A model generated the notes under the pieces. It ran no database searches and was not told the origin of the DNA. It worked only from the letters and a program-made list of their open reading frames with translations. A program made the position numbers and the translations under genes. 64,000 bases of DNA from Pyrodictiaceae archaeon (GTDB lineage Archaea; Thermoproteota; Thermoprotei_A; Sulfolobales; Pyrodictiaceae): assembly GCA_027036135.1 (NCBI GenBank), contig JALVSY010000007.1, positions 708,880 to 772,879 on the forward strand, written 5' to 3'. This document shows positions 24,453 through 50,533 of the stretch, one piece after another; the first letter of the stretch is position 1; each line of letters begins with the position of its first letter.

Positions 24453-24505
24453 ATCTTAAATCACAGCCCCCGTGAAGCTAATTATATCATCACTACTTAA
24501 TATGA

Positions 24506-24545
24506 TTAACGCGTGCTTATTTAACACTGGTTAATAAAAGTTAAC
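24506..24545. promoter_or_regulatory. Palindromic operator(s) TTAAC-N4-GTTAA in the regulator/qNor divergent promoter
   Basis: TTAACACTGGTTAA at 24521-24534, degenerate TTAACGCGTGCTTA at 24506-24519, and GTTAAC at 24540-24545. Confidence 0.6.
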
Positions 24546-24603
24546 CACGAAGCCTATCAAGAAACCATACTCTAAGGTATACACGCGTGAAAGGTGAAGC
24601 CCT

Positions 24604-26790
24604 ATGGCTAATGATAATGGCAAGAAAGTTAACGGTTGGAGCCTCCTAGTACTAATAGCGACCATTGCTGTATACGCAGGTTACTTAGCTGGCGCATTGT
24701 ATACATATGAACATTTACCACCAATTCCTGCCGAAGTTCGTACAGCTAGCGGTAAAGTACTCTTCACGGGCAAGGATATCGTAGAGGGTAAGTGGCTTGT
24801 CCAGCGCTATGGTTTACAAGACTATGGCAGCATACTTGGCTTTGGGGGCTATTTTGGACCAGATTACACGGCATACGTTTCCAAGATGATAGCCGATGCA
24901 GCGATTCATAACAGTCCAGGAGTTCACGTGAAGCCGTCCAGTCTAGTAAAGATAGTCAAGGATGGAGATAAGACAGTATTTATTGTAGCAAAGCCAGTGG
25001 CCGAGGCGTATGAGAGAGCTGTCAAGTTCTTCGAGAACTTCTTCGCAGGAAAATACGGCTCCACGAGGCTAGCCAGTGGTCTTTTCACAAATAGCGACAT
25101 AAAGAAAATGGTTTCGTACTTCACATGGACAGCACTAATAGCGCTAAAGGGCTATACGCATGGCTTTCCATACACGAAGGGCTTGCTTAAGCCCAATATA
25201 AACGCTATGCGGGCCACTTGGGTCACATTAATAATCTTCATGGCTGCCGTGATGCCACTAACGGCATATATAATAATAAAGTTCATTGACTACTGGAAGG
25301 ATGAGAGAATAAGCATTAATTTACCAAGACCAAACAAGGCACAGAGGCTAACGCTTCTAGGTATGGCTCTCGCGATGATAGGGCTTGGCGTACAAGGCCT
25401 CCTAGGCGGCTATATGATGCATCTCTACGCTGATCCAACGCTTTACGGGCTCGATCTACACAATATATTGCCATTTAATGTAGCAAGGGGCCTACACTAT
25501 AACCTCGCAATATTATGGATAGCTATAACCTGGGTCAGCTTCGCGCTCTTTACGCTGCCCTACTTCGGCGTGAAGCTGGACGAGAAGAAGGTACTAATGA
25601 TACTCATAGCGGCTACTGTGGTATCTCTGGGAGCACTCCTAGGACTATGGGCCTCATACCTAGGCAAGATACCAGCCACAGACAATCTATGGTTCATAAT
25701 AGGAAGCCAGGGACGCCCCGTTGTAAGCGCTGGCACTCTTTGGCTCCTCCTAATAGCAGCGCTGCTTGGATATATGTCCTACACGGTGTACCAGGCCTCT
25801 AAGATAAACCAGTACCCGCTTAATACCCTCTTAAAGATACTCGCCATAGGCCTCGGAGGCACAGCATTTGGTACCTTCGTAGGCGCTTTACCGATAGTAA
25901 GGCCCTTCAAGAACTTCACGCTGGACGAGTACTTCAGATGGATAACAATCCATGCCTTCGTTGAGGGCTTCTGGCCAGGAATAGTGTCATCTATACTAAT
26001 AATACTGCTCGTTATAGCTGGCATGGTGCCTCCTAGGCTTGCCGTGGCAGCGGCGGGCACTGATGCAAGCCTAGAAATAATTAGCGGAATGATAGGCACT
26101 GCTCACCACTACTACTGGGGCGGACAGCCAACGTTCTGGATGTACGTCGGCGCTGCCCTAAGCACTCTCGAGGTCATACCAATAGGGTTCCTAATGGCGT
26201 ACTCAATAGTCCTATGGCGTAGAGGGGAGATAAAGACAGAGCTACAGAAGACGCTGCTCACATTCATCCTAGTAGCAGGCATAGGCGGCGGTCTCGGAGT
26301 AGTAGCGTTTGGAGCAGGATTACTGAACATGCCGATACTGAACTATTATCTTCACGGCACACAGGCAACGATGCTTCACGCGCATCTAGCAATGCCCCTA
26401 GCCTACGGCATACCATCGATGCTGATGTGGGTTGTAGCCTTCTACCTAGCTGGTGCCCTAACGGATAGGCATCTATCTATTGCGCGGAAAGCTGCAGTAA
26501 TAATAGCGATAGGTTTCTATCTCCAAGCACTTGTCCTAGGAATAATGGCGTATAGACAGTTCCAGGCAGAGACGAATCTAGGGTACTGGGCTGTTAAGGG
26601 AATCGTGACTCCAAGCGGTAAACCAGGCATATGGACCACGATGACTGGCGTAATATGGAGCAGACTGGTAGGCGACTTAGTGGCTGCCGCTGGGATGTTA
26701 ATGCTGATGGTGCCCATGTTGTTTAACCTGCCAAAAGCGCTGCATGAACCAGTACTAGTAGAGACCAAGGAGGCTATAAGAAGAAAATAA
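24604..26790 (+). CDS. norB: Quinol-dependent nitric oxide reductase (qNor)
   Basis: YGSILGFGGYFGPDYTA, PFNVARGLHYNLAILW, RWITIHAFVEGFW, GTAHHYYW, STLEVIP and HAHLA heme/non-heme Fe ligands. GGTGA RBS. Confidence 0.95.
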   Translation: MANDNGKKVNGWSLLVLIATIAVYAGYLAGALYTYEHLPPIPAEVRTASGKVLFTGKDIVEGKWLVQRYGLQDYGSILGFGGYFGPDYTAYVSKMIADAAIHNSPGVHVKPSSLVKIVKDGDKTVFIVAKPVAEAYERAVKFFENFFAGKYGSTRLASGLFTNSDIKKMVSYFTWTALIALKGYTHGFPYTKGLLKPNINAMRATWVTLIIFMAAVMPLTAYIIIKFIDYWKDERISINLPRPNKAQRLTLLGMALAMIGLGVQGLLGGYMMHLYADPTLYGLDLHNILPFNVARGLHYNLAILWIAITWVSFALFTLPYFGVKLDEKKVLMILIAATVVSLGALLGLWASYLGKIPATDNLWFIIGSQGRPVVSAGTLWLLLIAALLGYMSYTVYQASKINQYPLNTLLKILAIGLGGTAFGTFVGALPIVRPFKNFTLDEYFRWITIHAFVEGFWPGIVSSILIILLVIAGMVPPRLAVAAAGTDASLEIISGMIGTAHHYYWGGQPTFWMYVGAALSTLEVIPIGFLMAYSIVLWRRGEIKTELQKTLLTFILVAGIGGGLGVVAFGAGLLNMPILNYYLHGTQATMLHAHLAMPLAYGIPSMLMWVVAFYLAGALTDRHLSIARKAAVIIAIGFYLQALVLGIMAYRQFQAETNLGYWAVKGIVTPSGKPGIWTTMTGVIWSRLVGDLVAAAGMLMLMVPMLFNLPKALHEPVLVETKEAIRRK

Positions 26791-26999
26791 TACAAAAACC
26801 CTTTAACTACTAACGATATCTAGATACTTGTTTAAAAGTTACTAACTAAGTTTTTTATATAAATTATGTATTGAGGCATCTATATCTGATTCTAGAGTGT
26901 GCTAAAGCGTCTAATTATATTATTTCATATCCGCTCAGATATTGAAGGATAGCGAAAAAGCAGACAAGTGGTCTCTCTTTGAAGAGGGGCTAATAGTTC

Positions 27000-28016
27000 T
27001 TGCACAGAGCTATTGAGGCTCGTGGTCTTGTTAAGCGCTATGTTACTTGGGAGCGTCGGGGCCTGTTTCGTAGGCGTAGGAGGAGTGTTGAGGCTCTTCG
27101 GGGTGTTAGTTTCTCTACTCGTTGGGGTGAGGTGTTTGGGCTTCTTGGGCCTAATGGGGCTGGTAAGACTACTACTGTGAAGATTCTCTCTACGCTTCTC
27201 CTCCCCGATGAGGGGGGTGCGCGGGTAGCTGGCTACGATGTCGTCAGCGAGGCTGTCATGGTTAGGGATAGTATTGGTGTTGTGCTGAGTGTTGAGAGGG
27301 GTTTCTTTTGGAAGCTTACTGGCCGCGAGAACCTGAGATACTTTGGTATGCTGCGGGGGCTGCGTGGCGGTGAGCTGGAGGAGAGGGTTTCGCGTGTTCT
27401 TCGCCTCGTTGGGCTCGAGGAGCTTGGCGCTGCTGATAAATTGTACGAGGAGTACTCTCTCGGCATGAAGGCCCGGCTTGCTCTTGCCCGAGCACTTCTC
27501 CACGACCCCAGAGTGCTTATCCTCGACGAGCCCACGCTCGGCCTGGACCCTGTCTCTGCTAGGCGTATCCGCGAGCTAGTTGTACGGCTTGCCCACGAGG
27601 AGCAGAGGGCTGTGCTCATAACTACACATAACATGTTCGAGGCCGAGATGATATGTGACCGTGTAGCAATAATAGACGAGGGCGTCATAAAGGCTATTGG
27701 CTCCCCCGAGGAGCTTAAGGCGAAGATAGCTCACAGCGTCCCCATTGTCATAAGGTTCCGAGGCGATAGGGGCCCCGGGGAGGCCGAGAAGGCTCTCCGA
27801 GCAGGGCTAGAGGTCCTGGGTCTCAGTGTTAAGCCTGTTGAGGATGGCTATGTGGCTCGTATCCTTGTTAGGAGTGGCGAGGACGAAGAGGTGCTCGCTA
27901 GAGCTATCGCTGTCTTGGCGAAGCTAGGCTTCTCTATTAGGAGCGTTGAAGTCTCCAAGCCCAGCCTCGAGGACGTATTCGTAGCTCTAACAACCCGGGA
28001 AAAGAGTGGGGCTTGA
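27000..28016 (+). CDS. ABC-2 exporter ATP-binding subunit
   Basis: GPNGAGKTT, YSLGMK, LILDEPT and TTH motifs. Confidence 0.95.
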   Translation: MHRAIEARGLVKRYVTWERRGLFRRRRRSVEALRGVSFSTRWGEVFGLLGPNGAGKTTTVKILSTLLLPDEGGARVAGYDVVSEAVMVRDSIGVVLSVERGFFWKLTGRENLRYFGMLRGLRGGELEERVSRVLRLVGLEELGAADKLYEEYSLGMKARLALARALLHDPRVLILDEPTLGLDPVSARRIRELVVRLAHEEQRAVLITTHNMFEAEMICDRVAIIDEGVIKAIGSPEELKAKIAHSVPIVIRFRGDRGPGEAEKALRAGLEVLGLSVKPVEDGYVARILVRSGEDEEVLARAIAVLAKLGFSIRSVEVSKPSLEDVFVALTTREKSGA

Positions 28017-28833
28017 TGCTGCTATGCCGAGTTCTTTCCTCGACGTGGTTGCCGCGGAGTTCTACGCGTATACGAGGTTCTATAAGAATAACCGGGCGAT
28101 GATGATTGCTGCCTTTATCTGGCCCTACCTAATGGTCTTGATACTTCTTGGGCTTGGCTACCTCTTTGGCAGTCTTAGCCAGTACGCTGCCCGCATGGGT
28201 GTCAGGAACCCAGTGTTCTTCATAGTGTCGGCGAGCACCGTTGCGATGAGCTCAACGTTCATAATTGACGAGGTTGCTAACTATACGCTCTATAATCGCT
28301 GGAACGGCACTCTCCCCTACATCCTATTGACCCCTATGAGGCTTCCTAAGCAACTACTAGCAGCTAGCATACCCTCGACACTAGTATCGCCAGCTATTAG
28401 TGTTACATCTGCGCTCCCAGTAGCAATTTACTTCGAGGGACTGAGGGGAGCAATTATCATTGCTGCTTTGTATACTGTTATTGTTCTCGGGATGGTGCCG
28501 CTCGCTGGCCTCTCCGTCCTCATAGCTGGGCTGGTCCTCACTGTGAGGGAGGAGACAAACATAGCTAATAGTATTACGCCCTTCCTCCTCTTGGTCTCCG
28601 GCGTCTTCTACCCAGTAACGATACTGCCTAAGGCATTACAGCTCATAGCCGTGGCTGTGCCCGTGAAGTATGTTGTGGATATAGCCCGGGCCATAGCCTC
28701 TACGGGTACGTTTAGCCACGAGGTCTTCCTAGCAGTCTATGTACTCACATTGATGGCGTTTGCGTATAACTCTCTCGTCGCGCCGCTACTCGGTGCTATA
28801 GAGGAGCGGGTGAAGCGCTATGCACCATTCTAG
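28006..28833 (+). CDS. ABC-2 exporter permease
   Basis: Six TM helices, RWNGTLPYILLTP, SGVFYPVTILP. Confidence 0.9.
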   Translation: MGLDAAMPSSFLDVVAAEFYAYTRFYKNNRAMMIAAFIWPYLMVLILLGLGYLFGSLSQYAARMGVRNPVFFIVSASTVAMSSTFIIDEVANYTLYNRWNGTLPYILLTPMRLPKQLLAASIPSTLVSPAISVTSALPVAIYFEGLRGAIIIAALYTVIVLGMVPLAGLSVLIAGLVLTVREETNIANSITPFLLLVSGVFYPVTILPKALQLIAVAVPVKYVVDIARAIASTGTFSHEVFLAVYVLTLMAFAYNSLVAPLLGAIEERVKRYAPF

Positions 28834-29638
28834 CAGGGGCCTAGCCAAGTTATTGGCAGTGATATACCTGCACGGTGTGAGGACTTGGCGCTATAAGTAC
28901 AGCTTCATAAATTCCTCGATAAACACTATGCTTTGGATAACCATATTCCTCCTAGGCGTGATAATGTTCGTCCCCGCCAAGGAGCTGCCAGTAGTAGCGC
29001 CACAGGTGTTCTGGGGAATAACTGTCTGGAACCTGATAACCTATACCGTTATATACATCTCTGGCTGGACAACATGGTTCCTCGTATCAATGGGGCTAGT
29101 AGAGGAGCACATACTCCACGGCCTAGGCCTACCCCTACTCCTCGCTGGGCGCCTCGTAACAGTCCTAGCTGAGTCAGCTATAGCCGTCCCCCTAGTCTAC
29201 TTCGTGCTAAGAGGAGTAGCTGGCCCCATGAGGCTCGTGGAGAACCCGTGGCTACTCCTCTACGGCCTAGTAGCGGCGGAGGCAATGGCTATAGGCTACG
29301 CATTAGTATTAGCGACACTGGCGCTTCGGCTAAGCATACCGGGGCCCATGCTTGACATAACTAACTTTATACTCTTCGTAGTGGGCGGGATAGCTGCCCC
29401 GGTTGCGAAGCTCCCTGCCCAGCTACGGGTAGTCGCACTCCTCACCCCGTATTCTCATGCAGCCGAGCTAGTGAGGTACGCCGCGACCGGGACGAGGCCC
29501 TACCTAGGCCTCTTAACCGAGACATTTATCAGCGGAGCACTAGCCGTAGCCATGCCGCTAGCCGCCTACGCGTTCTACCGCTTCGTTGAGAAGCATTATC
29601 TCCGGCGCTACGGTGTACGCGGCGTTGGCAGAATGTAG
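28820..29638 (+). CDS. ABC-2 exporter permease
   Basis: Six TM helices, GGIAAPVAKLP...LTPYSHAAELVR. Confidence 0.88.
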   Translation: MHHSSRGLAKLLAVIYLHGVRTWRYKYSFINSSINTMLWITIFLLGVIMFVPAKELPVVAPQVFWGITVWNLITYTVIYISGWTTWFLVSMGLVEEHILHGLGLPLLLAGRLVTVLAESAIAVPLVYFVLRGVAGPMRLVENPWLLLYGLVAAEAMAIGYALVLATLALRLSIPGPMLDITNFILFVVGGIAAPVAKLPAQLRVVALLTPYSHAAELVRYAATGTRPYLGLLTETFISGALAVAMPLAAYAFYRFVEKHYLRRYGVRGVGRM

Positions 29639-29760
29639 ACCGTAACAAAAATACCTGGTCAATACACGTTTCTTAATCCCGGCCTCCTCGCCGGGGGACA
29701 CCGCCGCGTAACGGCGCCTACAAGGGGGATGAGACCCGGCTGCGCACCGGAACATCTTCT

Positions 29761-30564
29761 TCATGGTTTCTGGAACTGTAGCTCCGCTAGGCTCCTAACG
29801 GTATAAGTGGCGTCGCATAGCTCGCCTCGCTCACCAGCAACCCCTGTCAACACCAATACGCTGTCCATGCCAGCTCTCTTTGCTGCTTCTATGTCTGTGT
29901 CGCAGCGATCACCTATGACGAGCGCCTCTACTGCGTGGACTCCATGTAGCTTGAGAGCTAGCTCAAACATGTATGTCTCTGGCTTGCCCGCAACAAAGAC
30001 TGGTCTAGCACCCGTGGATCTCTCTAGGAAGGCTAGTATCGCGCCAGCACCAGGCGCATCGCCACCCTCAACGGGGACAACGTTATCCGTGTTAGTAGCT
30101 ATCAAGGGGACACCGCACTTCCTTATTGCTTGGTGGGCTCTCCAGAGCTTATGGTAGCTAACAAGCCTATCGAGGCCAACCACTACGTAGTCCACAAGGC
30201 AGCTACCCGGGTCCATGGAGGTATAGACGAGGTGACCCTGCTCCACTAGCTCCTCTATGAGGCCCTCCTCCCCTATCACTAGGACGCGGGCCCTGCCACA
30301 CATATCTACGAGGCGGGCGGCGACAGCGTAGCCGCTCGTGATTATCTCGTCGGGGCCAACGTCCCAGCCCATTACCGCTGAGAGCCTCTCCATGTAGAGC
30401 CTCCGACTCCTCGTAGAATTATTTGTGACGAAGACTATCTTGATCCCAGAGTCGTGTGCCTTGCGTAGCCACTCAACATTCTCCTCGATAATCTCCTTGC
30501 CTCTCCACACAACACCGTCAAGATCCACTAGGAAGAGGCGATAAGCCTTCTCGAGTATTTGCAA
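29761..30564 (-). CDS. HAD-IIA family hydrolase (NagD-like)
   Basis: DLDGV, VTNNS, ATNTD, GKP and IGDRCDTDI motifs. Confidence 0.94.
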   Translation of the reverse strand: MQILEKAYRLFLVDLDGVVWRGKEIIEENVEWLRKAHDSGIKIVFVTNNSTRSRRLYMERLSAVMGWDVGPDEIITSGYAVAARLVDMCGRARVLVIGEEGLIEELVEQGHLVYTSMDPGSCLVDYVVVGLDRLVSYHKLWRAHQAIRKCGVPLIATNTDNVVPVEGGDAPGAGAILAFLERSTGARPVFVAGKPETYMFELALKLHGVHAVEALVIGDRCDTDIEAAKRAGMDSVLVLTGVAGERGELCDATYTVRSLAELQFQKP

Positions 30565-30690
30565 CCCTTACTCACTCCCCTATACAAGAGCCCCTATGGC
30601 TCCTCCCGGGGCGTCGCCGGGCGGGGCGCGTGGAGGCCGCATCCTTTATGAGTATCTATCGTGGCTATATAGTCTCGGTGAAGCAGGGCC

Positions 30691-31572
30691 TTGATCCTCT
30701 TTGACTGGGGCACCTATAACGGGCTCACCACCTTGGTGAAGGCTGCTACTCTCGGCATGAAGCTCACCGAGATACCGCCCTACGACTTCTCTAGGCGTAG
30801 TAGGAGGCTCGAGTACTTCCAGCAATACCGCGAGCTAGCAACTAAGGCGTTTACCACTATAACTGCTCACGCGCCCTACTATAACGTTGTCTCAACGGTC
30901 CCCGAGGTCTATGAGAGGAGTAAGAAGGCCCTAGTAGCTGCTGCGAAGAAGGCTAGGGAAGCTGGCGCCGAGATATTCAACCTGCACCTTGGCTGGAGAG
31001 CGTGGATGGATAACCGCGATATAGAGCAGGCAGCTGAGGTCGTGAAAGCTATCCTGGACGAGGTACCCGACATAGTTGTTACGCTCGAGACTATGTATTC
31101 TAGGAGAATGCTGGGCACCTTCGATGATATCAAGGCGATAATAGAGACAGTGGGTAGTGACAGGATACAGATATCGACTCAGCTAGAGAACGTGTTTATG
31201 CTGGAGACTGGTGCTGCTGAGCACGGTAACTTCGAGGCAGCTAATAGGAGCGTTGATGAGACCTTCTGGAGAAACGTTCTCCAAAAGACGCTGAGCCTTA
31301 GCACGAAGTACCTATCGCTTAGGTTCTCCCAGGTGGTGGGCTTCGCCCTTGGGAGAAGAGTGCTGAAGAAAAGGGTGCCGCTTGGCAAGGGCTATCCAGA
31401 CCTAGAGCCCTTGGCGAGAGCACTGGCGGATTTCATGGTGCACGAGATAAGGGAGAAGAACCTTGAGATGAGGATGCACCTAATCTACACGGGGCCCCCG
31501 GAGACTAAGTACCGCGACACAATAATGCTCTACGCAAAGGTGATGAGCGAGGTAGTGCCTCATCTCCACTAA
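30691..31572 (+). CDS. TIM-barrel protein, AP endonuclease family 2/xylose-isomerase-like (divergent)
   Basis: HAPYYN, NLHLG and TLETM match the family, but the later metal ligands look degenerate. Confidence 0.65.
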   Translation: MILFDWGTYNGLTTLVKAATLGMKLTEIPPYDFSRRSRRLEYFQQYRELATKAFTTITAHAPYYNVVSTVPEVYERSKKALVAAAKKAREAGAEIFNLHLGWRAWMDNRDIEQAAEVVKAILDEVPDIVVTLETMYSRRMLGTFDDIKAIIETVGSDRIQISTQLENVFMLETGAAEHGNFEAANRSVDETFWRNVLQKTLSLSTKYLSLRFSQVVGFALGRRVLKKRVPLGKGYPDLEPLARALADFMVHEIREKNLEMRMHLIYTGPPETKYRDTIMLYAKVMSEVVPHLH

Positions 31573-31735
31573 CATAGCCTTTTCCCCGATACCATTCCCT
31601 GCCTCTGCAGCTAAACCACGGGGTACATAGGGAGCCACTCTATCCCGAGCCTAGTCAGGGAATTATTCAGGATACTTGATTCCTTGTAAAGAAGACCAAA
31701 ACATGGCTAGCTAGTGAGGGGAGCCCAGAGGAGCC

Positions 31736-33553
31736 TTGGCAAAGCCTCCTAGTACTAGGCTTCGGCCCCGTAAGTATCAGTTAGAGGCCTATGAGTGGGC
31801 TCTGCGTGTTCGTCGTGGAGTAGTGGTGCTGCCTACCGGTACTGGTAAGACGCTTGTCGCTGTGCTCTGGGCGAAGAAGCTCCTAGAGAGCGGTGGCGCT
31901 AAGAGGGTATTGTTCCTCGAGCCTACGAGGTTCCTTGTGGAGCAGGTTGCTAGGTATATTCGCTGGGTCTCGGGCCTAGAGGCCGAGGCTGTTCACGGTG
32001 CTGTTCCCCGCGGGGAGAGGGATAGGAGGTGGAGAAGCCAAGTAGTGGTTGCTACCCCTGAGATTGTTCTAAGTGACTGGGATCTCGTAGAGAAGAACCC
32101 CGTTGACGCCGTTGTTGTTGATGAGTGCCACCATACTACTGGCAAGGATGCCTACAAGGAGGTAATGAAGAAGCTGAGAGGCGTTGAGTATCGGCTTGGC
32201 TTGTCGGCGTTCATTCCTAGGCATCGGAGGAGAGAGATAGAGGAGACTATTGGGGAGATAAGGGAGTGGAGCTGGTCTAGCCCAGATGTAGCCCCGTACA
32301 TCCCGCCATGGATAGGCGAGGTATACGAAGCCTCGCTGAACGAGGCCGAGCAGCGCCTCTACAACGCTCTCGAGGAGCTCAGTAACCGAGTGGCTGGTAG
32401 GCTACGGGGACTCGTAAGGAATGCTCTCCGCTGGCTAGTACGCGACGGTGCACTCGCCCTAAGGGAGAGCGCGGGGAAGCCGACACTGCTTGCCTCGCTT
32501 CTCAGCGAGCTAAGAGAACTAATAGGTGACCCGGGGGTAAGGCCTAGTCACAAGACCGAGCCCTTCAAGAGGATACTACGGGACCACGAGGGCTACTACT
32601 CCAAGGCAATAGTATTCATAGACCGTGTGGTTGTTGCCCGGCACGCCTGCGAGGAGGCCAAGAAGCTGGGCTATACCTGCGCCCTCATCCGGGGAAGGAT
32701 GCGGGGCCCCGAGCTAAGGAAGGCGCTGGAGGAGGCGGCAAGGCCCGAGACAAGAGTAATCGTTTCAACCTCTGCTGGCGAGGAAGGCATAGACCTGCCT
32801 GATGCCGATCTCTTAGTGATGTGGAGTATTACTGCCTCTCCTCTACGCTTCATACAGCGCCACGGGAGAGTGCTTAGGGCTAGGGAGGAGAAGCCCCGTA
32901 AGCCGCGCGTGGTGGCCTACATTGTTACGCTCGACACCGTTGATGTTGATAGCTTTGTCGACGCTATAGAGACTGCTAGGAAGATAGGCGTTGATGTACC
33001 TGTTGACCCTGGCGTCGTGGAGGCTCTTTGGCGCCGCACTACCCGGAGCCGGATAATAGCAGTGCTCGAGGGGAATCCAATGACAATAGAGCTGCTCATA
33101 GAGGCTCTCGGCATGCCGCGCGATAGGCTGGAGCGCGACTTGCAGAGGCTTATGCAGAGAGGCGAGGTAGTCTACATCTATACAGCAATAGGCAAGGTCT
33201 ATGCATATAGCGGCGACATAGAGCTATTGGAGGAGAGGTTCCCAGAGTACCTTAGCCCAGAGAAAGGCGCCAAGGCCAGGGCGAAGTACGTTGCTCAGGG
33301 CACTAGTAGGTGGAGCCGGGCAATTAGCGGTGACTACGAGCAACTATATGCCCGCCTATCAAGGGTTGTTGAGAAGACTCCTATCGAGAGGCTACTAGCG
33401 AGCCTAGAGGTTGACACGGGTAAGGGGCTCGTGAGGCTAGTGAACCTACACTATACCTTCCTCATAGACGAGGAGGAGAAACTGGGGCTAGTACTGAGGA
33501 ATGCTTTCTCGGTGCCACGGATAATAAGGGAGCTGGGCACCCTTCCCTCATAG
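31736..33553 (+). CDS. SF2 DExH helicase (Hef/Mph1-like) with a C-terminal wHTH region
   Basis: YQ motif, PTGTGKT, DECHH, GLSA, TSAGEEGIDLP, FIQRHGR. Confidence 0.88.
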   Translation: MAKPPSTRLRPRKYQLEAYEWALRVRRGVVVLPTGTGKTLVAVLWAKKLLESGGAKRVLFLEPTRFLVEQVARYIRWVSGLEAEAVHGAVPRGERDRRWRSQVVVATPEIVLSDWDLVEKNPVDAVVVDECHHTTGKDAYKEVMKKLRGVEYRLGLSAFIPRHRRREIEETIGEIREWSWSSPDVAPYIPPWIGEVYEASLNEAEQRLYNALEELSNRVAGRLRGLVRNALRWLVRDGALALRESAGKPTLLASLLSELRELIGDPGVRPSHKTEPFKRILRDHEGYYSKAIVFIDRVVVARHACEEAKKLGYTCALIRGRMRGPELRKALEEAARPETRVIVSTSAGEEGIDLPDADLLVMWSITASPLRFIQRHGRVLRAREEKPRKPRVVAYIVTLDTVDVDSFVDAIETARKIGVDVPVDPGVVEALWRRTTRSRIIAVLEGNPMTIELLIEALGMPRDRLERDLQRLMQRGEVVYIYTAIGKVYAYSGDIELLEERFPEYLSPEKGAKARAKYVAQGTSRWSRAISGDYEQLYARLSRVVEKTPIERLLASLEVDTGKGLVRLVNLHYTFLIDEEEKLGLVLRNAFSVPRIIRELGTLPS

Positions 33554-36490: not shown

Positions 36491-36492
36491 CC

Positions 36493-42205: not shown

Positions 42206-42301
42206 CTCGGGGGACCTTGGTGGCTCGGTCCCGCCGAGGACCCCTTCCTCACCCCCTGGGGGCTCCTCGGTGAAAGGGCGTCCCTCCTCATCACCACCGA
42301 G
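42206..42301 (-). ncRNA. Candidate structured RNA with C/D-box (K-turn) motifs
   Basis: Minus strand reads GGTGG-TGATGA...CCGA...GTGAGGA...CCGA-G-CCACC. GC-rich, intergenic, with multiple stems. Confidence 0.4.
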
Positions 42302-42337
42302 ATCTCTGTTCATGTACTGAGAGGGTTGTTTTCTTGG

Positions 42338-43189: not shown

Positions 43190-44097
43190 TTCTCGAGCAG
43201 CCTCACAGCCCGGTACGCAAACCAGTTAAGCGGGGCCGAGACCCCGTGTCTCCAGGCCTCTTCGGCGACGACTCCACTGATATAGTCTATCTCGGTCCGC
43301 TTACCCCTACTAATGTCCTGGATCATGGAGGAGCAGTTATCCCCAGTTACCCGGGCTACTCGCAGCGCCTCCTCAACAGGGTTCCTCGGCAGCTTAATGC
43401 CGTGGGCCTCGGCGACCCTGCCAACCTCCTCTGCCAAGGCCTCAGCTAGCTCCCTGGCAAAAGGATCCTCAACTACTACCCGGTTACGGCTCCACGCTAG
43501 CACTGTTACTGGGTTTATTGCTGCGTTTACCGCGAGTTTCAGCCAGCGCCACTCATCGAGACGCCCGCCGATGCAGTGGGTACTTAGCCCTCCCCGACTA
43601 AGAGCATCGGAGAGGAAGTGGCAGGCACGCCTAGCTTCCTCGTTAGCGCTTCTCCAGCCCAGCAGCACCTCGCCCCTATTGACGAGCCTTGAGCGGCAAT
43701 GCCCGAGCCTAGTGGAGCCAAACAACACTATTCCGCCAAGAGCCCTACCCGGGAACCTCGACTCTAGTAGCTCTAGGCTCCCTAGCCCATTCTGTAACGA
43801 GACAACCGAGCCAGGCCTCCACCCAGCACGTAGAGACTCCTCAACAGCTGCTCGTAGATCATAGGCCTTGGTAGCGTAGAGAACCAGCTCTGGGCTAATC
43901 CTATGTGCATCGCTCCACGTGTAGACGGGGATACTAGCCTCTCCTAGACCCTCGACAATAACCCTGCTAGCACTCTGGCCCCGAGTAACTACAGCCACGT
44001 CCACGCCTCCCCTGCTAAGCGCGACAGCAAGCACTGAGCCAACAGCGCCGCACCCAACAACCACTACACTGGCCAAGGCAGCTCCTTGCCCTCCCAT
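43153..44097 (-). CDS. panE: Ketopantoate reductase
   Basis: VGCGAVG, TKAYD, LQNGLG, WLKLAVNAAINP, SSMIQD and TEIDYISG. Confidence 0.93.
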   Translation of the reverse strand: MGGQGAALASVVVVGCGAVGSVLAVALSRGGVDVAVVTRGQSASRVIVEGLGEASIPVYTWSDAHRISPELVLYATKAYDLRAAVEESLRAGWRPGSVVSLQNGLGSLELLESRFPGRALGGIVLFGSTRLGHCRSRLVNRGEVLLGWRSANEEARRACHFLSDALSRGGLSTHCIGGRLDEWRWLKLAVNAAINPVTVLAWSRNRVVVEDPFARELAEALAEEVGRVAEAHGIKLPRNPVEEALRVARVTGDNCSSMIQDISRGKRTEIDYISGVVAEEAWRHGVSAPLNWFAYRAVRLLEKWLAGRRSPCET

Positions 44098-44122
44098 GAG
44101 GACCGGAGTGTTCTCCCGGGAA

Positions 44123-44166
44123 TATACCCGCCGGTATATAGCTACAGTTATATAACCACAGTTATA
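44123..44166. promoter_or_regulatory. Three tandem 14-nt-period palindromes TATAnC-N4-GnTATA
   Basis: TATACC-CGCC-GGTATA (44123), TATAGC-TACA-GTTATA (44137) and TATAAC-CACA-GTTATA (44151) in the panE/ATPase divergent spacer. Confidence 0.65.
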
Positions 44167-44196
44167 CAGCAGGTTATGCCATGGGGGCACCCGTTA

Positions 44197-45498
44197 GTGC
44201 AAAAAGTAGTTATCCATCGATGGGAGTGTAGCTACCTTGCCAAGCGCTCCCGGGAACAAGGCTGGGTACTGGTATACGGTAGGAGGAAGACAGGAAAGAC
44301 ATGGCTTCTAAGGAACTGCGTTGACTGGGGTCTCTACGTCACTGTTACGCGTAGCGGCGAGTGCATAGTAGAGGACCGGGCTGGTAGGAGGAATATTGGT
44401 CTCCGAGAATGCATATCCATGGCTACTCAGGGGCTGAGGAAGCAGGGGGAGAGCATCATTATTGACGAGTTTCAGCGTGTCCCGGAAAAGTACTGGGACT
44501 TGCTAGCAATTGCTGCCCACGAGGCTGAGAGAGGCCTCATACTATGCGGGTCTAGCCTAGGCATGGCACGCCGCGTATTCGACGAGAGAAGCCCCTTGCT
44601 AGGCTTCTTTGAGGCCTTCCGCGTAGACCTGGCAAGCATCGCGGATACCATCGCGTCACTCCACGGCCAGGGCCTCGGAACCCGCGAGGCAGTCCTATGG
44701 TCAATTATTGTCCGTGACCCCTGGGTGCTGCTGCATCTCAAGCCCCGGGGTGAGCCCTGGAAGCTACTAGCCGAGCGAGCAGCTGGCCTTGTCCCCGCGG
44801 CTAAGGGGCTTATCGGGGAGGTGTTTAGTGAGGAAGATAGGCAGCTAAGCAGGGTCTACGAGGCGGTTCTCCAGCTACTAGCTCAGGGCTATTGGCGGGC
44901 TGCCGACATAGCTGCCAAGCTCTACGAGGCAGGGTTCTCCACGTCTCCCCAGCCAGGGGTAGCAACCGGGGTTCTTCGCGTCCTTGAAGAGATGGGGCTT
45001 GTTGAGCGTGTTCCCTTGTGGAGGACTCGTAGAGCCCGCGTATATTATCGGCACCGATCCTCGTCGGTCTCGCTTCTCTACAGCGTAGCAGACTATGTGG
45101 AGGAGGTAGGGGAGACACCTAGCCCCGACGCGCTCTTGGCAAGGTATGGTGTGGAGCTGCAGTTCGGCCTCGGAGAGCTACTAGCTGAGCGCAAGGGTCT
45201 TCGCAGAGGCTACTCTATACCGCGGGGTGGACGCGACATAGACGTCGTCTTGCTCGATAGACGCGGCAGGCCTGAGTGGGGCTACGAGGTGGAAATGGGC
45301 CACCTGGATACCCGCGAAGCCGAGAACATAGCTGAGTGGATACGGTCCCTCGGAATACCACACGCAGGTATAATAGCCCTAGGCGGGATAAGGGGCGATA
45401 CAGGTAGGGTTGATGAGGCCCCTGACGCCAAGGCTATAGTGGAGGAGGCAGAGATGCTAAGCAATACACGGAGAAAAGAAATTGATACGGTGGAATAG
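44197..45498 (+). CDS. Archaeal AAA ATPase with wHTH and C-terminal DUF234-like PD-(D/E)xK domain
   Basis: YGRRKTGKT, IDEFQR, CGSS, SPLLG and DIDVV...YEVEMG. GTG start at 44197. Confidence 0.85.
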   Translation: MQKVVIHRWECSYLAKRSREQGWVLVYGRRKTGKTWLLRNCVDWGLYVTVTRSGECIVEDRAGRRNIGLRECISMATQGLRKQGESIIIDEFQRVPEKYWDLLAIAAHEAERGLILCGSSLGMARRVFDERSPLLGFFEAFRVDLASIADTIASLHGQGLGTREAVLWSIIVRDPWVLLHLKPRGEPWKLLAERAAGLVPAAKGLIGEVFSEEDRQLSRVYEAVLQLLAQGYWRAADIAAKLYEAGFSTSPQPGVATGVLRVLEEMGLVERVPLWRTRRARVYYRHRSSSVSLLYSVADYVEEVGETPSPDALLARYGVELQFGLGELLAERKGLRRGYSIPRGGRDIDVVLLDRRGRPEWGYEVEMGHLDTREAENIAEWIRSLGIPHAGIIALGGIRGDTGRVDEAPDAKAIVEEAEMLSNTRRKEIDTVE

Positions 45499-45567
45499 CC
45501 TTAGCTAAGGCGCTGCTCCTGGCTACCCGGTTCCGAGGCCCTACGGAGATCGGAGGAGTCCCTGAGC

Positions 45568-46299
45568 TTGCCTATCGTGCGAATGGGTGGCTGGGTACTA
45601 GCCATAGAGGGGGATACAAACAGCTCTAATGACATTATTGCTACTCTTCGCCGCGTCTACGAGAGAGTTAGTGGAGAGGACCTCGTCGAGCTAATTATCC
45701 ACGAATCGCGAGAAGCAATGGAGACGTTTCTCAGACAAGAAGCAGAGAGGCTGGGCGTTGTTATTGATGCCTCGTTCCCCGTGGTTCATGAGGCTTGGAC
45801 CGGGGTTCCCCGGATACACGTAGTCCCCCAGGAGCTTAGACAACTAGGCGACGTGGGCAAGGCCTTTCTCGTACACGAGGCCTTTCACAGCATACTACAC
45901 GGCTCACTAGAGTATTATATCGTAACATTACCCGGCAGCGATGAAGCGAGCTGGCTAGCAGCCTACATAGCCGCCACGAGTATCAAGGACCTAGAAGTAC
46001 ACATGCACATGAAGAGATACGGGTTCAAGGAGGAGCTATTGCTCGAGAAGAACTACTGGGAGAAAACACTGGGAAACAAGTGGGGATGCAGCAGTCCCGA
46101 GGAGCTTGGAGATGTGCTGCGAGCAGCCACGATATGGATAGTCCTGGGAGAGAAGCCGCCGCTAAGCGAAGAGTGCTCCGGGAAAATAGAGCCCCTTATC
46201 AAGTTATACGAGGAACTAACGCGCCTAGATAAGAGGCCGTGGAATTACCTGGATAGAGCAATAAGCGAGACAATAGGCATTGTTAAGGCTCTTCGGTAG
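45568..46299 (+). CDS. Hypothetical protein with zincin HExxH motif
   Basis: HEAWTGVPRI, LVHEAFHSILHG and KDLEV. Confidence 0.65.
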   Translation: MPIVRMGGWVLAIEGDTNSSNDIIATLRRVYERVSGEDLVELIIHESREAMETFLRQEAERLGVVIDASFPVVHEAWTGVPRIHVVPQELRQLGDVGKAFLVHEAFHSILHGSLEYYIVTLPGSDEASWLAAYIAATSIKDLEVHMHMKRYGFKEELLLEKNYWEKTLGNKWGCSSPEELGDVLRAATIWIVLGEKPPLSEECSGKIEPLIKLYEELTRLDKRPWNYLDRAISETIGIVKALR

Positions 46300-46359
46300 A
46301 GCTGTCTCTGAGCCCAGCCGTGTCCCGGAGGGATGCATATGGAGGCCTAGTGCTCCTAG

Positions 46360-47715
46360 GTGACGAGGCATTTTTCATCCCTCAGGGACCTTGATACAGA
46401 GTTAATGGTGTTGTCTCTCTTGGCTAGCGGAGAGCCCCTTGTTCTTTGTGGCCGGGTAGTTGATACGTCTAGTGGCGGTATTATCGAGGATGGCTGCGTC
46501 GTTGTAGAGGGCAGTGTTATACGTGATGTTGGTTCCCGTGGCTCTGTCGAGGTACCGGAAGAGGCTAGGGTTCTTGATCTCCGGGGTTATACTATCCTGC
46601 CTGGCCTAATAGATGCCCATGTACATGTTACCGGGCTTCGTAGCGGCGACTACGTGAGAGAGGCCCTCACAACCCCGGCTGGTGTTCTATGCGCACGCGG
46701 AGCAAGGGATTTAGAGAAAATGCTTGATGCTGGCTTCACCACTATTGTTGATGCTGGTGGTGTTATAGGTCTTCATCTCCGCGATGCTGTTGCTGAGGGC
46801 ACTGTTAGGGGGCCGCGCATAGTTGCTGCTGGGTACCCGTTGAGCCAGACCTTTGGCCATGGCGATGTACACTTTCTCCCCGTTGAGTACGTTGATGCAC
46901 GGACTACTAGGATTTTCCAGCCCTTCCTCTCACTGATATGTGATGGAGCTGACGAGTGCCGCAAGGCTGCTCGCTATGCTCTCCGGGAGGGAGCGGATTT
47001 TATCAAGATATTCGCTAGTGGTGGCGTTGCTTCCCAGCGCGATAGGCCAGAGTACCCTCAGTTCACCCTAGAGGAGATCAAGGCCATTGTTGAGGAGGCT
47101 AGGAGGGCTAGGAGGTTCGTACATGCACATGCAGAGGGTGCGGAGGGCATAATCAATGCTCTACGCGGGGGCGTGACGAGGATAGCCCACGCAATATTCA
47201 TAGATGATGAAGGCATTAGCCTAGCCCTGGAGAAGAACGCTGTCATAATCCCAACGCTTAGTGTCGTGAAGCTACTCGTGGAGCACGGCGAGAAAGCCGG
47301 GGTACCGAGCTGGGCCCTAGAGAAGGCACGGGAAGTCTACAAGATACACGTGGAGAACATTAGGCGTGCCTACCGGGCAGGTGTAAGGCTAGCGACTGGC
47401 ACCGACTTCTTCTTCGAGCCACTCGGGACAAAGTTCTACGGGCTCAATGCGTTAGAGATACACCTCCTCGTAACAGAGATAGGGCTAAGCCCCCTAGAAG
47501 CACTAATAGCTGCCACTAAGAACGCTGCCTACGTGGCCGGGCTAGAGGGCAAAGTAGGCGAGCTAAAGCCGGGATACCTAGCAGACATCATAGTCGTGAA
47601 AGGCAACCCTGACCAAGACACTAGGACACTACTCTGCCCAGACAACGTAGTACTTGTGATGAAGGAAGGCAAGATACTAAAAGACAGAGTCAATGGCCAA
47701 GATGCACATGCTTAG
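46360..47715 (+). CDS. Metal-dependent amidohydrolase (Xaa-Pro dipeptidase-like)
   Basis: PGLIDAHVH, IKIFASGG, HAHA, IAH, GTD and GYLADIIVV. Start probably at 46405 or later. Confidence 0.92.
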   Translation: MTRHFSSLRDLDTELMVLSLLASGEPLVLCGRVVDTSSGGIIEDGCVVVEGSVIRDVGSRGSVEVPEEARVLDLRGYTILPGLIDAHVHVTGLRSGDYVREALTTPAGVLCARGARDLEKMLDAGFTTIVDAGGVIGLHLRDAVAEGTVRGPRIVAAGYPLSQTFGHGDVHFLPVEYVDARTTRIFQPFLSLICDGADECRKAARYALREGADFIKIFASGGVASQRDRPEYPQFTLEEIKAIVEEARRARRFVHAHAEGAEGIINALRGGVTRIAHAIFIDDEGISLALEKNAVIIPTLSVVKLLVEHGEKAGVPSWALEKAREVYKIHVENIRRAYRAGVRLATGTDFFFEPLGTKFYGLNALEIHLLVTEIGLSPLEALIAATKNAAYVAGLEGKVGELKPGYLADIIVVKGNPDQDTRTLLCPDNVVLVMKEGKILKDRVNGQDAHA

Positions 47716-47852
47716 GCAATAGTAGAGTATTAGTTAAGGCACTAGTAGTTACTGCTCTCTCAGCTCCGATAGCTTGCGCACTGAGTCAGTTCCCAGGAAT
47801 ACTTTTACTTAGCTCTTCATATTCCACCTCTATAAGGAGGAAAAAGGGGGCC

Positions 47853-48336
47853 GTGGATTCTCTCGTAATTAGTCTGCCGCCTAGTACGGCTAAGAGGCTT
47901 CGTAGAGAGGCCGAGAGGAATGAAATGAGTGTTGAGGAGCACGTCTTGGAGCTTCTAGGGACTAGTCTAAATCCCCGCTAATAGAGCGAGGGAGTATATA
48001 GAGGGAGCAAGACAGCTCCTTGAGCAGGCTCGTGGGGAGCTGGGGAGGGGTGATGTTCGGCAGGCTGCTGAAAAGCTATGGGGCGCGGCAGCACTGGCTG
48101 TTAAGGCCTACGCGTCGTGGAGAGAAGGCAAAAGGCTGACAAGCCACCGAGAACTATGGGAGTATAGCAAGAAGCTGATAAACGAGCTAGGAGAATGGGT
48201 GTATGATGCATGGATGGCGGCCAATGGTATGCATACATGCTTCTACGAAAACTGGTGCAGCAGGGAGCATGTTGAGAGCGCTATTAAGCGTATAGAGAGG
48301 CTTGTCAACGAGATTACTCGCCGTATACTCGGCTAG
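47853..48336 (+). pseudogene. PaREP1 family protein with RHH-like N-terminus, +1 frameshift (absent from the ORF track)
   Basis: MDSLVISLPPSTAKRLRREAE..., then after CCCC 47973-47976, GDVRQAAEKLWGAAALAVKAYA...TSHRELWEY...AWMAANGMHTCFYENW. Length 484 nt = 3n+1. Confidence 0.85.
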
Positions 48337-50306
48337 CTCCTTGACCCACGCCTCATTTCCACCAATAATCGATGAACAATGCTCTCCACAGCGTCTGCCT
48401 GGTTTGTTGCAGGGCACGCGTTTATGCAGAGCCGGCAAGCCCTACATTTCTCTGGGTTTATCCTTGGTAGGGGCTCTGTGAAGGCGTTGTAGGGGCAGCT
48501 TTCTTTGCAGAGGCCGCAGCCGAGACAGTAGGAGGCCATATAGAGCGCTGCCGCTGCTGCCCTCGCTGCCTTGGCTGCTCCGCGCCTATTCCTTACGCGC
48601 TCGGGGTTCCTTATCTCGATTCGGCCCGTTGTGCTTACTAGTATCTCTGCGTCACTGTCCTCGTCTAGTAGGAGTGTCTCGTTGCCCCAGGTCTCTAGTA
48701 TTCTTAGCCCGGTCGCCTTGGCGAGGCCCGGCAATAGGCTGGGCTCGATAGCGTCGTGAAGCGTTATCGTTGCTACGAGGCTCCGGCCTCGCCGAGAGTA
48801 CTCCAGGGCTGCCGATACGCCGCGGTTCAGCTTCTCTAGTAGCTTGTCGGGGTCTAGCCCAGCTCTCCTGGCCAGGAGCCTGGCCTAAGAAGGGTAGCTG
48901 AATCTCCACCTCCATAGCCCCAGCGTGATCCACTCGCTCGGCAAGTCTCGGCGACGAGCATAGCTCCTTAGAAAGCTTGTCCACTTCTCCCATAGATCTG
49001 GGTGGCGTTTCTTAACTATCTTGAACTCTGCTAGCCTGCTTACGGGGCACATGTAGCACCCTATGCGGTCAAACCCTTCCAGGTACAATGGGTGGAGCGG
49101 TAGTCTCCGGTAGTGTATGTAGAGGTAGACCTCTAGGCTACTCCACCTCTGAATAGGGAGGGCTACGTAGTGCCTACCACGGGCAGCTGTACCGCTCTCA
49201 GCTAGTCGGGGCGAGAGTGCTCTCTGGGTACTCTCTGCTCCCCGTTGCCCAGTTACGACGAGTATCCTCTTGTCCCTGGGGAACTCACTGAATACCCTCG
49301 GGAGGACGCTCATCTTGAGGTACTTCGTGCACCACCTATAGTCCCTGGCTGGGGGCCCGTAGAGCCTCGCTGCCCGCCAGAAGGCCTCTGAGCCAGGGGA
49401 TGCCTCGTGATGAGTAAACCCGAGAGCCCTAACTATCTTGTCTATGGTCTCGAGGCTCTCAGGGTGCTCGATACCAGTATCGATGCTATAGCTGTGCTCT
49501 ACCCCCGCTCTCATAGCAATGCTGGCCGCTACCGTGCTGTCCTTCCCGCCGCTGACAGCGCTAACAGCCCAGAAGCCATGAATCCTTATTGTCTCCTGGA
49601 GCCAGGTCGTTGCCTCCTCTTCTAGCTCCTCTAGCCATTCCCTGTTAACCTCGACGGCCTCGTCTAGGCTGAGGGGGCGGGGGTTATGCCTCCACTCTAT
49701 TCTACGGTTCCTCGCCCAGGCCTTAACCACACGTATTGCGCCGTCCTCGAGTACTCTTCCAACACCATAGCTTGGGCCACGCCCCACAAGTACGACGAAG
49801 TTTCCGGGGCCGGGCTTCTCGCCTCGGAGCCCCTCTCGGAGAACAGCGCCACTACGGAGCCGGGCCCTGGTCTCAACAACAGTCCCCAGCTCCTCGTTGG
49901 CGAGGATCTCTGCGCCGACACGGTCTGGGCGAAACCTCCACCTATCCTCTAGGGGCTCGTAGAAGAAGAGACCAACCGTGTGCCCATCGACGAGGACCTC
50001 GTATGCCGCATCGACGCCCTGGACGGGGTTAAACAATGCGAAACTGGATGGCGAGCCAAGGAGTCTCTTGGCAGCCTCTTTGCCGTGCTCGCGCTTGGCT
50101 GCTTCGTAGAGCTCTCTCCTCTCCTTGGGCCACGCTGGCCTAGCATCACCCGGTGGAGCCATCTTGACCTCAACAGTCCTTGAGCCACAGCGGGGACAGC
50201 GCTCCCTGCCAAGAACAGGGGCGCCGCAGACAGGGCACCAGCGCAACCTTGGCACGTATCTCCGGAAGATGCGTAGCGCTGCCTCCCCCTTTACCCGCTT
50301 AACCAC
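48333..50306 (-). pseudogene. PAPS-reductase-domain protein with Zn-ribbon, PUA-like and C-terminal 4Fe-4S domains, interrupted by an in-frame TAG
   Basis: CPVC/CPRC, PPGDARPA, SGGKDS, YRWCTKYLK, GQRGAES and RIGCYMCP. TAG at 48885-48887, then the same frame continues into CLGCGLCKESCP/CRACRLCINACP. Confidence 0.85.
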
Positions 50307-50404
50307 ACTAACGTCTGCCCTCGCATAGCCAGGCTAGGCTATCTCGTCACTATCCTCTTATTTCCTCCTCGTTTGGGCTGTTAGCCCACAAGAGAACTCA
50401 TTAA

Positions 50405-50418
50405 TTAACACGTGTTAA
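50405..50418. promoter_or_regulatory. Perfect palindrome TTAACACGTGTTAA upstream of the octaheme cytochrome
   Basis: 14-bp perfect inverted repeat 116 nt before the ATG, just upstream of BRE/TATA-like CCGAAAAGTTAAG. Same consensus as the qNor promoter. Confidence 0.7.
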
Positions 50419-50533
50419 AGCTATGGTCTGCTCCGAAAAGTTAAGGTTGCAACGCTAAAACCAATGCCCCGCATTATAACATAGACTACCCGGACAACAA
50501 GGTAACGATGCACTATAAGAGGGAGGACAAGCC

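Follow-up and report, generated by a model that had tools for sequence, protein, structure and literature searches.

A 64,000-nucleotide stretch of the genome of a Pyrodictiaceae archaeon, referred to here as the window (G000:C7:708880-772879, G000 being the source assembly of 2.2 Mb in 40 contigs), contains two copies of an inverted repeat, TTAAC-N4-GTTAA, each lying between divergently transcribed genes. One stands between the gene for a quinol-type nitric oxide reductase (qNor) and that for a small helix-turn-helix (HTH) protein, the other between the genes for an octaheme cytochrome c and a PAPS-reductase-like protein. The initial annotation of the window had taken these copies as the shared operator of a nitrogen-oxide regulon governed by the HTH protein. 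Comparison of the source genome with its relatives leads to a different reading. Both sites represent a single regulatory palindrome, non-random and conserved in evolution, and the system to which they belong is, with a probability put at roughly 0.55, a Pyrodictiaceae-wide, cysteine-based redox/Fe-S stress repressor regulon with a winged-helix protein of 133 amino acids (aa) as its binder, into which the qNor and octaheme loci were recruited in the source genus.

At the first locus, the qNor gene (24604-26790, plus strand; 728 aa), recognized from domain matches, encodes a single polypeptide with a NorB_cytochrome_c-like segment at residues 42-92 and a COX1 domain at residues 249-651. The HTH protein, P0001 (158 aa), is encoded on the minus strand at 23976-24452. 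Both gene calls hold, as does that of the octaheme cytochrome, with the qualification that the HTH_10 match of P0001 lies below the cut-off (19.6 versus 23.1 bits). Their divergent promoter contains the operator copy TTAACACTGGTTAA, found at 24521-24534 where it had been reported and scoring 15.6 bits by a weight matrix trained on 15 sites from genomes other than G000, all upstream of orthologues of the 133-aa protein; the A/T-rich sequence TAAAAG abuts it directly on the qNor side. A tandem second copy, TTAACGCGTGCTTA (24506-24519), lies 15 nt away, start to start. It had been described as degenerate; it is present, but at 15.5 bits by the weight matrix it practically equals its neighbor. A weak motif-like box, TATACACGCGTGAA (24578-24591; 10.8 bits), lies directly 5' of the qNor ribosome-binding site and recurs at the same place in two further qNor-bearing genomes (9.2 bits in G015 and 6.2 bits in G019); either weak binding of the same factor or an operator function for the local HTH protein may explain it. 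No match was returned by a sigma-70 promoter and terminator scan of 24400-24650, such models not being applicable to archaea, and nothing was matched in an Rfam scan of the window and locus L001.

At the second locus, the perfect palindrome TTAACACGTGTTAA, likewise confirmed at 50405-50418 and scoring 21.9 bits, precedes the octaheme gene (50534-53188, plus strand; 884 aa), which encodes a cytochrome c of the HAO/IhOCC family with eight CxxCH motifs. The position of the site is kept in two genomes of the same genus, as TTAACAAGCGTTAA in G004 (20.9 bits) and as TTAACACCCGTTAA in G001. Divergent from the octaheme gene, and unmentioned in the initial annotation, is the gene for a PAPS-reductase-domain protein with an N-terminal Cys-rich segment (48885-50306, minus strand). 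A further block, CCGAAAAGTTAAGGTTGCAACGCTA (50436-50460, plus strand), lies on the side of the octaheme gene. Its core, CCGAAAA.TT.GGTTGCAA, is found 15 nt beyond the palindrome and does not vary among the five genomes of two genera (the window, L082, L085, L086 and L047) that have it before the octaheme gene. The block, whose conservation exceeds that of the palindrome, includes a near-palindrome, GGTTGCAAC. It may be a core promoter or may serve a cluster-specific factor, such as the neighboring 290-aa HTH_10 protein, as operator. Because A/T-rich DNA flanks the 50405 site on both sides and this block lies beyond it, the site could act on either gene, and the PAPS-reductase-like gene is as possible a target as the octaheme gene. 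Orthologues of the PAPS-reductase-like gene were uninformative as to which gene owns the site, as those in three other genera carry none.

Within the window, exact matches to TTAACN4GTTAA number 2, against 0.03 expected, and none of 100 dinucleotide shuffles reaches 2; the initial annotation was right that no other complete copy is present. Allowing one mismatch gives 3 matches against 1.47 expected, a count of at least 3 being reached in 17 of 100 shuffles, so that the overlapping one-mismatch copy at 24531 is not significant and carries no weight.

Enrichment of the motif, genome-wide and in relatives, had been put forward as the means of judging the proposal, and it is found. All 7 exact copies in G000 are intergenic, in a genome with a coding fraction of 0.86 (one overlaps the longest-ORF start by 7 nt), and no other of 30 permutations of the half-site yields as many intergenic palindromes as TTAAC (7/7). 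With up to two mismatches to TTAACACGTGTTAA, 17 of 20 sites are intergenic, intergenic DNA making up 16.7% of the genome. With no more than one mismatch in the ten outer positions the proportion is 43/65, compared with 12/30 for a reversed control pattern, and the weight matrix finds 26 matches at or above 14 bits, 23 of them intergenic. The DNA flanking the sites is unrelated between sites, so that the motif is not a repeat element. Since AC follows TTAAC in 6 of the 7 exact copies, the fuller consensus in the source organism is a 14-nt dyad; the consensus palindrome of the Pyrodictiaceae-wide regulon is TTAAC-N4-GTTAA and, in the source genus, TTAACAC|GTGTTAA. Taken with the conservation described below, these sequence statistics make it very probable that the motif is a true operator.

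The placement of the sites is of a kind that would suit repression. They cluster 10-60 nt before start codons, and for about 10 of the 23 best intergenic copies the distance from the end of the site to the called start codon is 16-32 nt. As crenarchaeal transcripts are commonly leaderless, this interval would correspond to the TATA/BRE region, which the palindrome would abut or overlap at most promoters. Tandem copies occur at the promoters of qNor, sufC, the 2-oxoacid:ferredoxin oxidoreductase (OFOR) and thioredoxin. Overall, the list of promoters with the motif in G000 comes to about 20-40.

The genes behind these promoters fall largely outside nitrogen-oxide metabolism. Sites precede Fe-S genes (sufC-sufB/D, with two; a FeS_assembly_P protein; a ferredoxin; endonuclease III; two radical-SAM genes), the OFOR alpha subunit, whose promoter has two, and genes of iron handling (ferritin, an SfuA/ThiB-type, iron-type ABC binding protein, feoA and feoB, the last preceded by a 403-aa gene of no assigned function with a site of its own). 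Thiol and oxidant defence is represented by thioredoxin (two sites), a thioredoxin-reductase-like flavoprotein, a Bcp/PrxQ peroxiredoxin and a superoxide reductase (SOR) divergent from pyruvate kinase. Respiratory and related genes form a smaller set, composed of a cytochrome c/4Fe-4S/NrfD cluster just beyond the window, an NnrS-like protein, the qNor/HTH pair and the octaheme/PAPS-reductase-like pair; several genes without known function also carry sites. It is therefore likely that the dominant theme of the regulon is Fe-S clusters, iron and oxidative stress rather than nitrogen oxides, and the nitrogen-oxide-specific regulon originally proposed is not supported. Its expectation of a site upstream of an nnrS-type gene is borne out, and so in part is that of a common factor for qNor and the octaheme cytochrome: as both sites are copies of one conserved palindrome, a shared factor on both promoters is likely, but its regulon is not specific to nitrogen oxides. 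The two thioredoxin sites lie 163 nt apart in a gene-poor stretch of ~850 nt upstream of the gene (L001 4340-5196; G000:C7:35011-35867).

Conservation was followed in 40 relatives, which with G000 make 41 genomes; 24 of the relatives belong to the family, four of these (G001-G004) to the same genus, and 16 lie outside it. Exact copies in the same-genus genomes number 11 in G004, 6 in G002 and 4 each in G001 and G003, against 0-1 for control patterns (0 in G004). The stricter pattern TTAACACNNGTTAA has 6 distinct sites each in G000 and G004 and 0-2 in most others, with controls at 0-1 (0 except in two genomes). Orthologous promoters with sites in G004 include those of endonuclease III, OFOR, sufC, the octaheme/PAPS-reductase-like pair, Bcp, thioredoxin and ferredoxin, as well as the 204-aa, 403-aa, 131-aa and 110-aa genes, the HMG-CoA-synthase-like/DUF309 and GTP cyclohydrolase I (GCH1)/pyrophosphatase (PPase) genes and others, while sites at an M42 peptidase, an SBP_bac_5 protein and a 369-aa protein have no counterpart in G000. 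G001, G002 and G003 have sites at octaheme/PAPS-reductase-like, binding-protein, endonuclease III, ferritin and OFOR promoters. Across the wider set, a site of at least 12 bits lies within 250 nt upstream of sufC in 14 of 29 genomes with sequence (13/20 in the family, 1/9 outside). For SOR the count at this level is 7 of 26, and four others score 9.9-10.9 bits. As background, 1.5% of 594 upstream regions sampled from G000 have such a site.

Perfect palindromes in other genera pointed to the gene for a 133-aa MarR/TrmB-like winged-helix protein, which in the source genome lies outside the window (G000:C30:160167-160568). The protein is present in 22 of the 24 family relatives and in none of the 16 genomes outside the family (E ≤1e-5); a profile search for an orthologue in G031, G026, G037 and G025 also found none. 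Within 260 nt upstream of the 22 orthologues, a site with no more than one outer mismatch occurs in 15, one with two mismatches in 5 and none in 2, compared with a background of 50 among 2504 G000 genes. Examples are TTAACACGTGTTAA in G009, TTAACGCGTGTTAA in G016, TTAACACATGTTAA in G008, TTAACGCGCGTTAA in G010 and TTAACGAGCGTTAA in G015. Thirteen upstream regions with no more than one outer mismatch were inspected by eye (G018 and G023 counted once, G007 left out), and in 8 of them a TATA-like run (AGATAT(T/A)A-like) follows 0-6 nt after the site.

The structure predicted for this protein is consistent with a role in binding such a palindrome. Its AlphaFold model (pLDDT 83.7) has helices at 29-40, 44-55, 62-69 and 73-85, a wing at 90-106 and a final helix at 109-132, the first and last helices flanking a winged helix. 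The top Foldseek matches are MepR (a MarR protein), 3r0a, AbfR2 (Lrs14) and ST1889, at E values of ~1e-5 to 4e-4, and the nearest solved sequences and folds include MepR, AbfR2, ST1889 and AF2008. Scores against Pfam are close to or below threshold (TrmB 25.1 versus a cut-off of 25.6, MarR_2 19.2 versus 27); most homologues carry a precomputed PF01978 label, and a search of the ESM Atlas gave only generic small archaeal TrmB-domain clusters. Homologues are named as hypothetical, TrmB-family or MarR-family proteins of Pyrofollis, Pyrodictium and Hyperthermus, from which the family is identified as Pyrodictiaceae. Three cysteines, C34, C38 and C119, are invariant in all 31 database homologues and all 22 genome orthologues, and are arranged as a CxxxC in helix 1 and one Cys in the C-terminal helix. 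From its distribution, its own promoter and this predicted architecture, the odds are slightly in favor of the 133-aa protein being the binder of the palindrome.

Among described regulators, the closest parallels are the thiol-based MarR repressors OhrR and MgrA/SarZ, which share with the proposed system a small dimeric winged helix and a palindromic operator over the promoter, supposing that the 133-aa protein is indeed a dimer and a repressor. OhrR-type regulators also target peroxide and thiol defence, and the closest solved folds of the 133-aa protein are MarR proteins. Two-Cys OhrR proteins have one Cys in the N-terminal helix and one in the C-terminal helix, positions in which the 133-aa protein also has cysteines. 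The differences are substantial, however, as sequence similarity to MarR proteins is marginal (MepR, E 1.7e-4; Pfam MarR models under cut-off), a CxxxC pair takes the place of a single sensing Cys, the regulon described here is far larger and includes Fe-S assembly and iron transport, and the 133-aa protein is limited to one archaeal family. SurR of the Thermococcales, a protein of ~230 aa with two domains and a CxxC, recognizes GTTn3AAC and governs hydrogenase and sulfur metabolism. It resembles the 133-aa protein as an archaeal winged helix with an N-terminal Cys pair thought to gate DNA binding, a multi-operon redox regulon and a short dyad containing GTT/AAC triplets. Its motif nevertheless differs from TTAAC-N4-GTTAA, and the likeness is one of general features.

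In regulon content the nearest systems are IscR and NsrR (both Rrf2) and SufR, in which suf, iron handling and norB- or nnrS-type genes come under one repressor with three Cys per monomer. The 133-aa protein differs from these in fold family and Cys spacing, and a cluster in it is only proposed; a profile search of G000 for Rrf2 proteins gave none over the cut-off of 30, the best scores being 17.1 and 16.8 bits. The boxes of FNR, DNR and NnrR, with the consensus TTGAT-N4-ATCAA, share the 5-4-5 dyad geometry and the association with a nitric oxide reductase promoter, but TTAAC is unlike TTGAT at 3 of 5 positions and the regulon is not one of denitrification; the HTH_Crp_2 matches in G000 that pass the cut-off are confined to open frames 87 and 515 aa long. 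Regulons of Fur/PerR type are similar in their iron uptake, ferritin and peroxide defence targets, and G000 has a Fur homologue; they differ in operator architecture (7-1-7), and the motif is not found at fur genes. The operator of ST1710 contains GTTAAC but, in the accessible part of PMC2724296, not the TTAAC-N4-GTTAA dyad. The system, with its regulon as reconstructed here, is best regarded as a form of Cys-bearing winged-helix stress repressor restricted to one family.

A number of observations weigh against this assignment. The training sites of the weight matrix were picked as the best matches to the consensus and so are not independent of it, and genes and start codons come from a crude ORF caller of our own. 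When one mismatch is allowed in G004, the motif gives 51 sites and the control pattern 47, so that only the better sites are informative. Targets off the theme include the RNA polymerase subunit Rpb5, an HMG-CoA-synthase-like protein and the GTP cyclohydrolase I/pyrophosphatase genes, and either gene of each divergent pair may be the one controlled. At the promoter of the 133-aa gene itself, the site is degenerate in the source genus (TTAGCCCACGTTAC, with 2 outer mismatches in all four there). Genus g6 has a site at the regulator gene and none at suf or SOR, and G031, from outside the family, has a 22.7-bit sufC site and no 133-aa orthologue, even by profile search. Finally, the sites of the qNor region in another genus are weak (10.1 and 8.3 bits), and octaheme and PAPS-reductase-like orthologues outside the genus have none, the latter in three other genera. 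Because of these last observations, the qNor and octaheme loci are read as recent recruits to an older regulon.

The alternative that survives best, although still rather unlikely, is that the motif is real but bound by another conserved factor, the 133-aa protein being merely a conserved target. Three candidates come into question: a Fur homologue (G000:C30:142256-142708, with a Fur match of 79.6 bits at 142319-142633), a 205-aa MarR_2/TrmB-like protein (G000 C16:529607-530224) and a 261-aa HTH_10 protein (G000 C7:~183516). In bacteria, regulators of Fur/PerR type control feoAB, ferritin, iron binding protein, suf and oxidative-stress genes, a content that the regulon matches, and Fur is widespread in the family. 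The absence of sites at suf and SOR in g6 coincides with the absence of Fur, and G031 has both Fur and a 205-aa homologue together with its sufC site. The operon of the 205-aa protein, moreover, has a conserved site, in the source genus only. Against this, 25 of 26 fur loci contain no motif copy within ~1.5 kb of the gene, the sole exception (L154) being a weak site with 2 outer mismatches ~950 nt from the gene, and the Fur-less g6 genomes keep perfect or near-perfect sites at the 133-aa gene. The motif is also a 7-0-7 (or 5-4-5) palindrome, unlike the 7-1-7 boxes of Fur and PerR. The 205-aa protein is missing from G018 (98% complete) and G023, yet in both of them sufC and the 133-aa gene are preceded by sites, and no sites occur near the 261-aa gene in G000 or G004. 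Fur and the 205-aa protein accordingly rank below the 133-aa protein as binder. A search for HTH domains of DtxR type gave a single weak match over the cut-off, in a 425-aa frame.

Less probable still is the original proposal, in which P0001 binds TTAAC-N4-GTTAA and a dedicated nitrogen-oxide regulon joins qNor to the octaheme cytochrome. The model of P0001 (pLDDT 91.3) combines an N-terminal alpha/beta domain with a C-terminal three-helix HTH like those of sigma region 4 and LuxR; the C-terminal 50 residues align with sigma-region-4/LuxR HTHs and with the archaeal transcription factor 8hno at Z 8.1-8.3 and rmsd 1.2-2.1 over 49-55 residues. Foldseek with the whole protein gave no PDB match at E ≤0.001, and an ACT/ferredoxin-like fold for the N-terminal domain, with a VIA-align Z of only ~7, was not accepted as a fold assignment. 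P0001 is divergent from qNor in all three of the 41 genomes that have qNor, and motif or motif-like boxes are present in all three intergenic regions. Its own promoter bears the motif in G000, G018 and G023 (more weakly in G015 and G019), and in G018 and G023 the exact TTAAC-N4-GTTAA stands before a TATA-like run, which can be read as autoregulation; the NnrS-like gene with a site is a further point in its favor. Homologues, however, occur in only 7 of the 41 genomes, G000 included. None was found in the four same-genus genomes, of which the complete G004, also without qNor, keeps 11 exact copies and its targets, the octaheme locus included, so that P0001 is not the main binder; a search of a genome-contig collection with P0001 likewise found no relative. 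Perfect or near-perfect sites at the 133-aa gene are present in G009, G016 and G008, which have no P0001, and most targets are not nitrogen-oxide genes. Of its cysteines (11, 30 and 53), C11 and C53 are conserved in the family and the third is not. As the motif lies at its own promoter, P0001 itself looks like a target, and its constant position beside qNor makes it probably a local qNor regulator within the reach of the wider regulon.

Two further features of this protein family can be recorded. Six of its seven members have C11 together with a CxxC, the G000 copy being without the first Cys of the pair. In G023, G018 and G013, the TTAAC-N4-GTTAA site upstream of the P0001 homologue has another dyad ahead of it, GGTTGCAC-N3-GCAACC (GGTTGC-N5-GCAACC; L023 ~1380-1400, L024 and L025); this dyad resembles the GGTTGCAAC block of the octaheme promoter.

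A third possibility is that the palindrome is a variant of the core promoter, BRE/TATA-like and perhaps read by an alternative TFB or TBP. The clustering of sites 10-60 nt before start codons would fit this, as would the way in which the TTAA ends run into A/T-rich TATA-like stretches at many promoters. A 14-nt dyad with a G+C-rich centre (ACGT or CGCG) is, however, unlike the archaeal TATA/BRE consensus, the motif is found at the promoters of only ~25-45 of ~2500 genes, and both the tandem copies and the dyad symmetry, which suits a dimeric winged-helix protein, argue for an operator, making a core-promoter role highly improbable. Chance resemblance in AT-rich intergenic DNA, for which it can be said that the pattern was defined after both sites were seen and that the window shows no significant excess once a mismatch is allowed, is refuted, within the limits of sequence statistics and conservation, by the enrichment in window and genome and by positional conservation in other genomes.

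A repressor regulon built on the 133-aa protein would work as follows. Its core would consist of sufCB, superoxide reductase and the regulator's own gene, with the qNor/HTH and octaheme/PAPS-reductase-like pairs as newer members. A dimer of the 133-aa protein would bind the palindrome where it covers the TATA/BRE region, blocking TBP and TFB and thereby repressing transcription. Oxidation or nitrosylation of the cysteines, or loss of a metal or Fe-S centre, would release it, and release would derepress Fe-S repair, iron acquisition and storage and antioxidant enzymes along with qNor and the octaheme/PAPS-reductase-like locus. The sign of regulation and the signal are put forward with lower confidence than the identity of the binder.

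A bolder and rather doubtful extension is that the 133-aa protein founds a Pyrodictiaceae-restricted class of winged-helix regulators sensing through an Fe-S cluster or metal-thiolate centre held by the three cysteines, with the Cys of the C-terminal helix probably at the dimer interface. If so, Fe-S assembly, iron uptake, antioxidant enzymes and nitric oxide reductase would be derepressed together whenever the cluster was lost or nitrosylated, and the protein would be an archaeal functional counterpart of IscR, NsrR and SufR on an unrelated scaffold.

Several features around the two loci bear on their history and local control. The low-GC stretch at 20000-26800 (0.42-0.47, compared with ~0.50-0.55 around it) holds qNor and P0001 and adjoins PIN, HEPN and nucleotidyltransferase toxin-antitoxin genes and an ammonium transporter; the qNor module looks laterally acquired. 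The closest solved relative of the octaheme cytochrome is 4qo5 (E 5.8e-79), followed by hydroxylamine oxidoreductases (HAO-like chains, 3e-16 to 7e-9). The alignment with 4qo5 is limited to residues 324-654, and residues ~660-884 (52500-53188) form a C-terminal coiled coil of ~200 residues, with weak SMC/Golgin-type matches, ending in a hydrophobic membrane anchor. Downstream of the PAPS-reductase-like gene on the same, minus strand is a 2x[4Fe-4S] ferredoxin gene (48333-48734), possibly in one transcription unit with it. The 290-aa HTH_10 regulator (54993-55865, plus strand) lies beside the octaheme cluster in 4 of 4 genomes examined and is likely a cluster-specific regulator. A weaker motif copy, TTAACACGTGGCAA (54672-54685; 12.1 bits), falls inside the 3' end of the ORF at 53334-54869, ~320 nt upstream of the HTH_10 gene; its status is doubtful because it is not conserved in G004. 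Farther downstream of the octaheme cluster, 55900-63700 holds a full cytochrome c maturation set of low GC content (0.40-0.46), with thioredoxin-like, CcmF-like, CcmA-like and CcmC-like genes and an ABC-2 permease.

Other observations concern more distant genomes. In G031, the sufC site TTAACACGCGTTAA (L028 1501-1514; G031:C35:67180-67193) is near-perfect and lies 29 nt before sufC, and the gene divergent from sufC encodes a 248-aa protein with a thioredoxin-like N-terminus. G037, G026 and G025, from other families of the order, have 21, 13 and 8 exact copies of TTAAC-N4-GTTAA against 0-1 for controls; these have other centres and none precedes sufC or SOR, and a related half-site may be used there by another factor. 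The complete genome G012 has no exact copy of the motif and has near-copies before sufC, SOR and the 133-aa gene. At loci L148 and L122 of this genome, the Fur match contains in-frame TGA and TAG stops and the 205-aa winged-helix match a TAG, so that both may be pseudogenes.

The Pyrodictiaceae include the most heat-tolerant cultured organisms. As far as could be found, almost nothing is known of transcription control in the family: the literature search found no paper on the motif, the protein or any Pyrodictiaceae regulon, archaeal DtxR comparative work being unchecked for a similar motif, and the accessible text of PMC8105010 mentions no regulator, "transcriptional regulator" having 0 occurrences there. 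For such organisms, the analysis provides a concrete operator, a list of promoters and a named candidate regulator with three testable cysteines. Should the cluster-sensing proposal be true, the regulator would be a master switch letting strict vent anaerobes survive pulses of oxygen and nitrogen oxides. The findings also suggest how laterally acquired respiratory modules, here the low-GC qNor island and the octaheme cluster, may become wired into a resident stress regulon.

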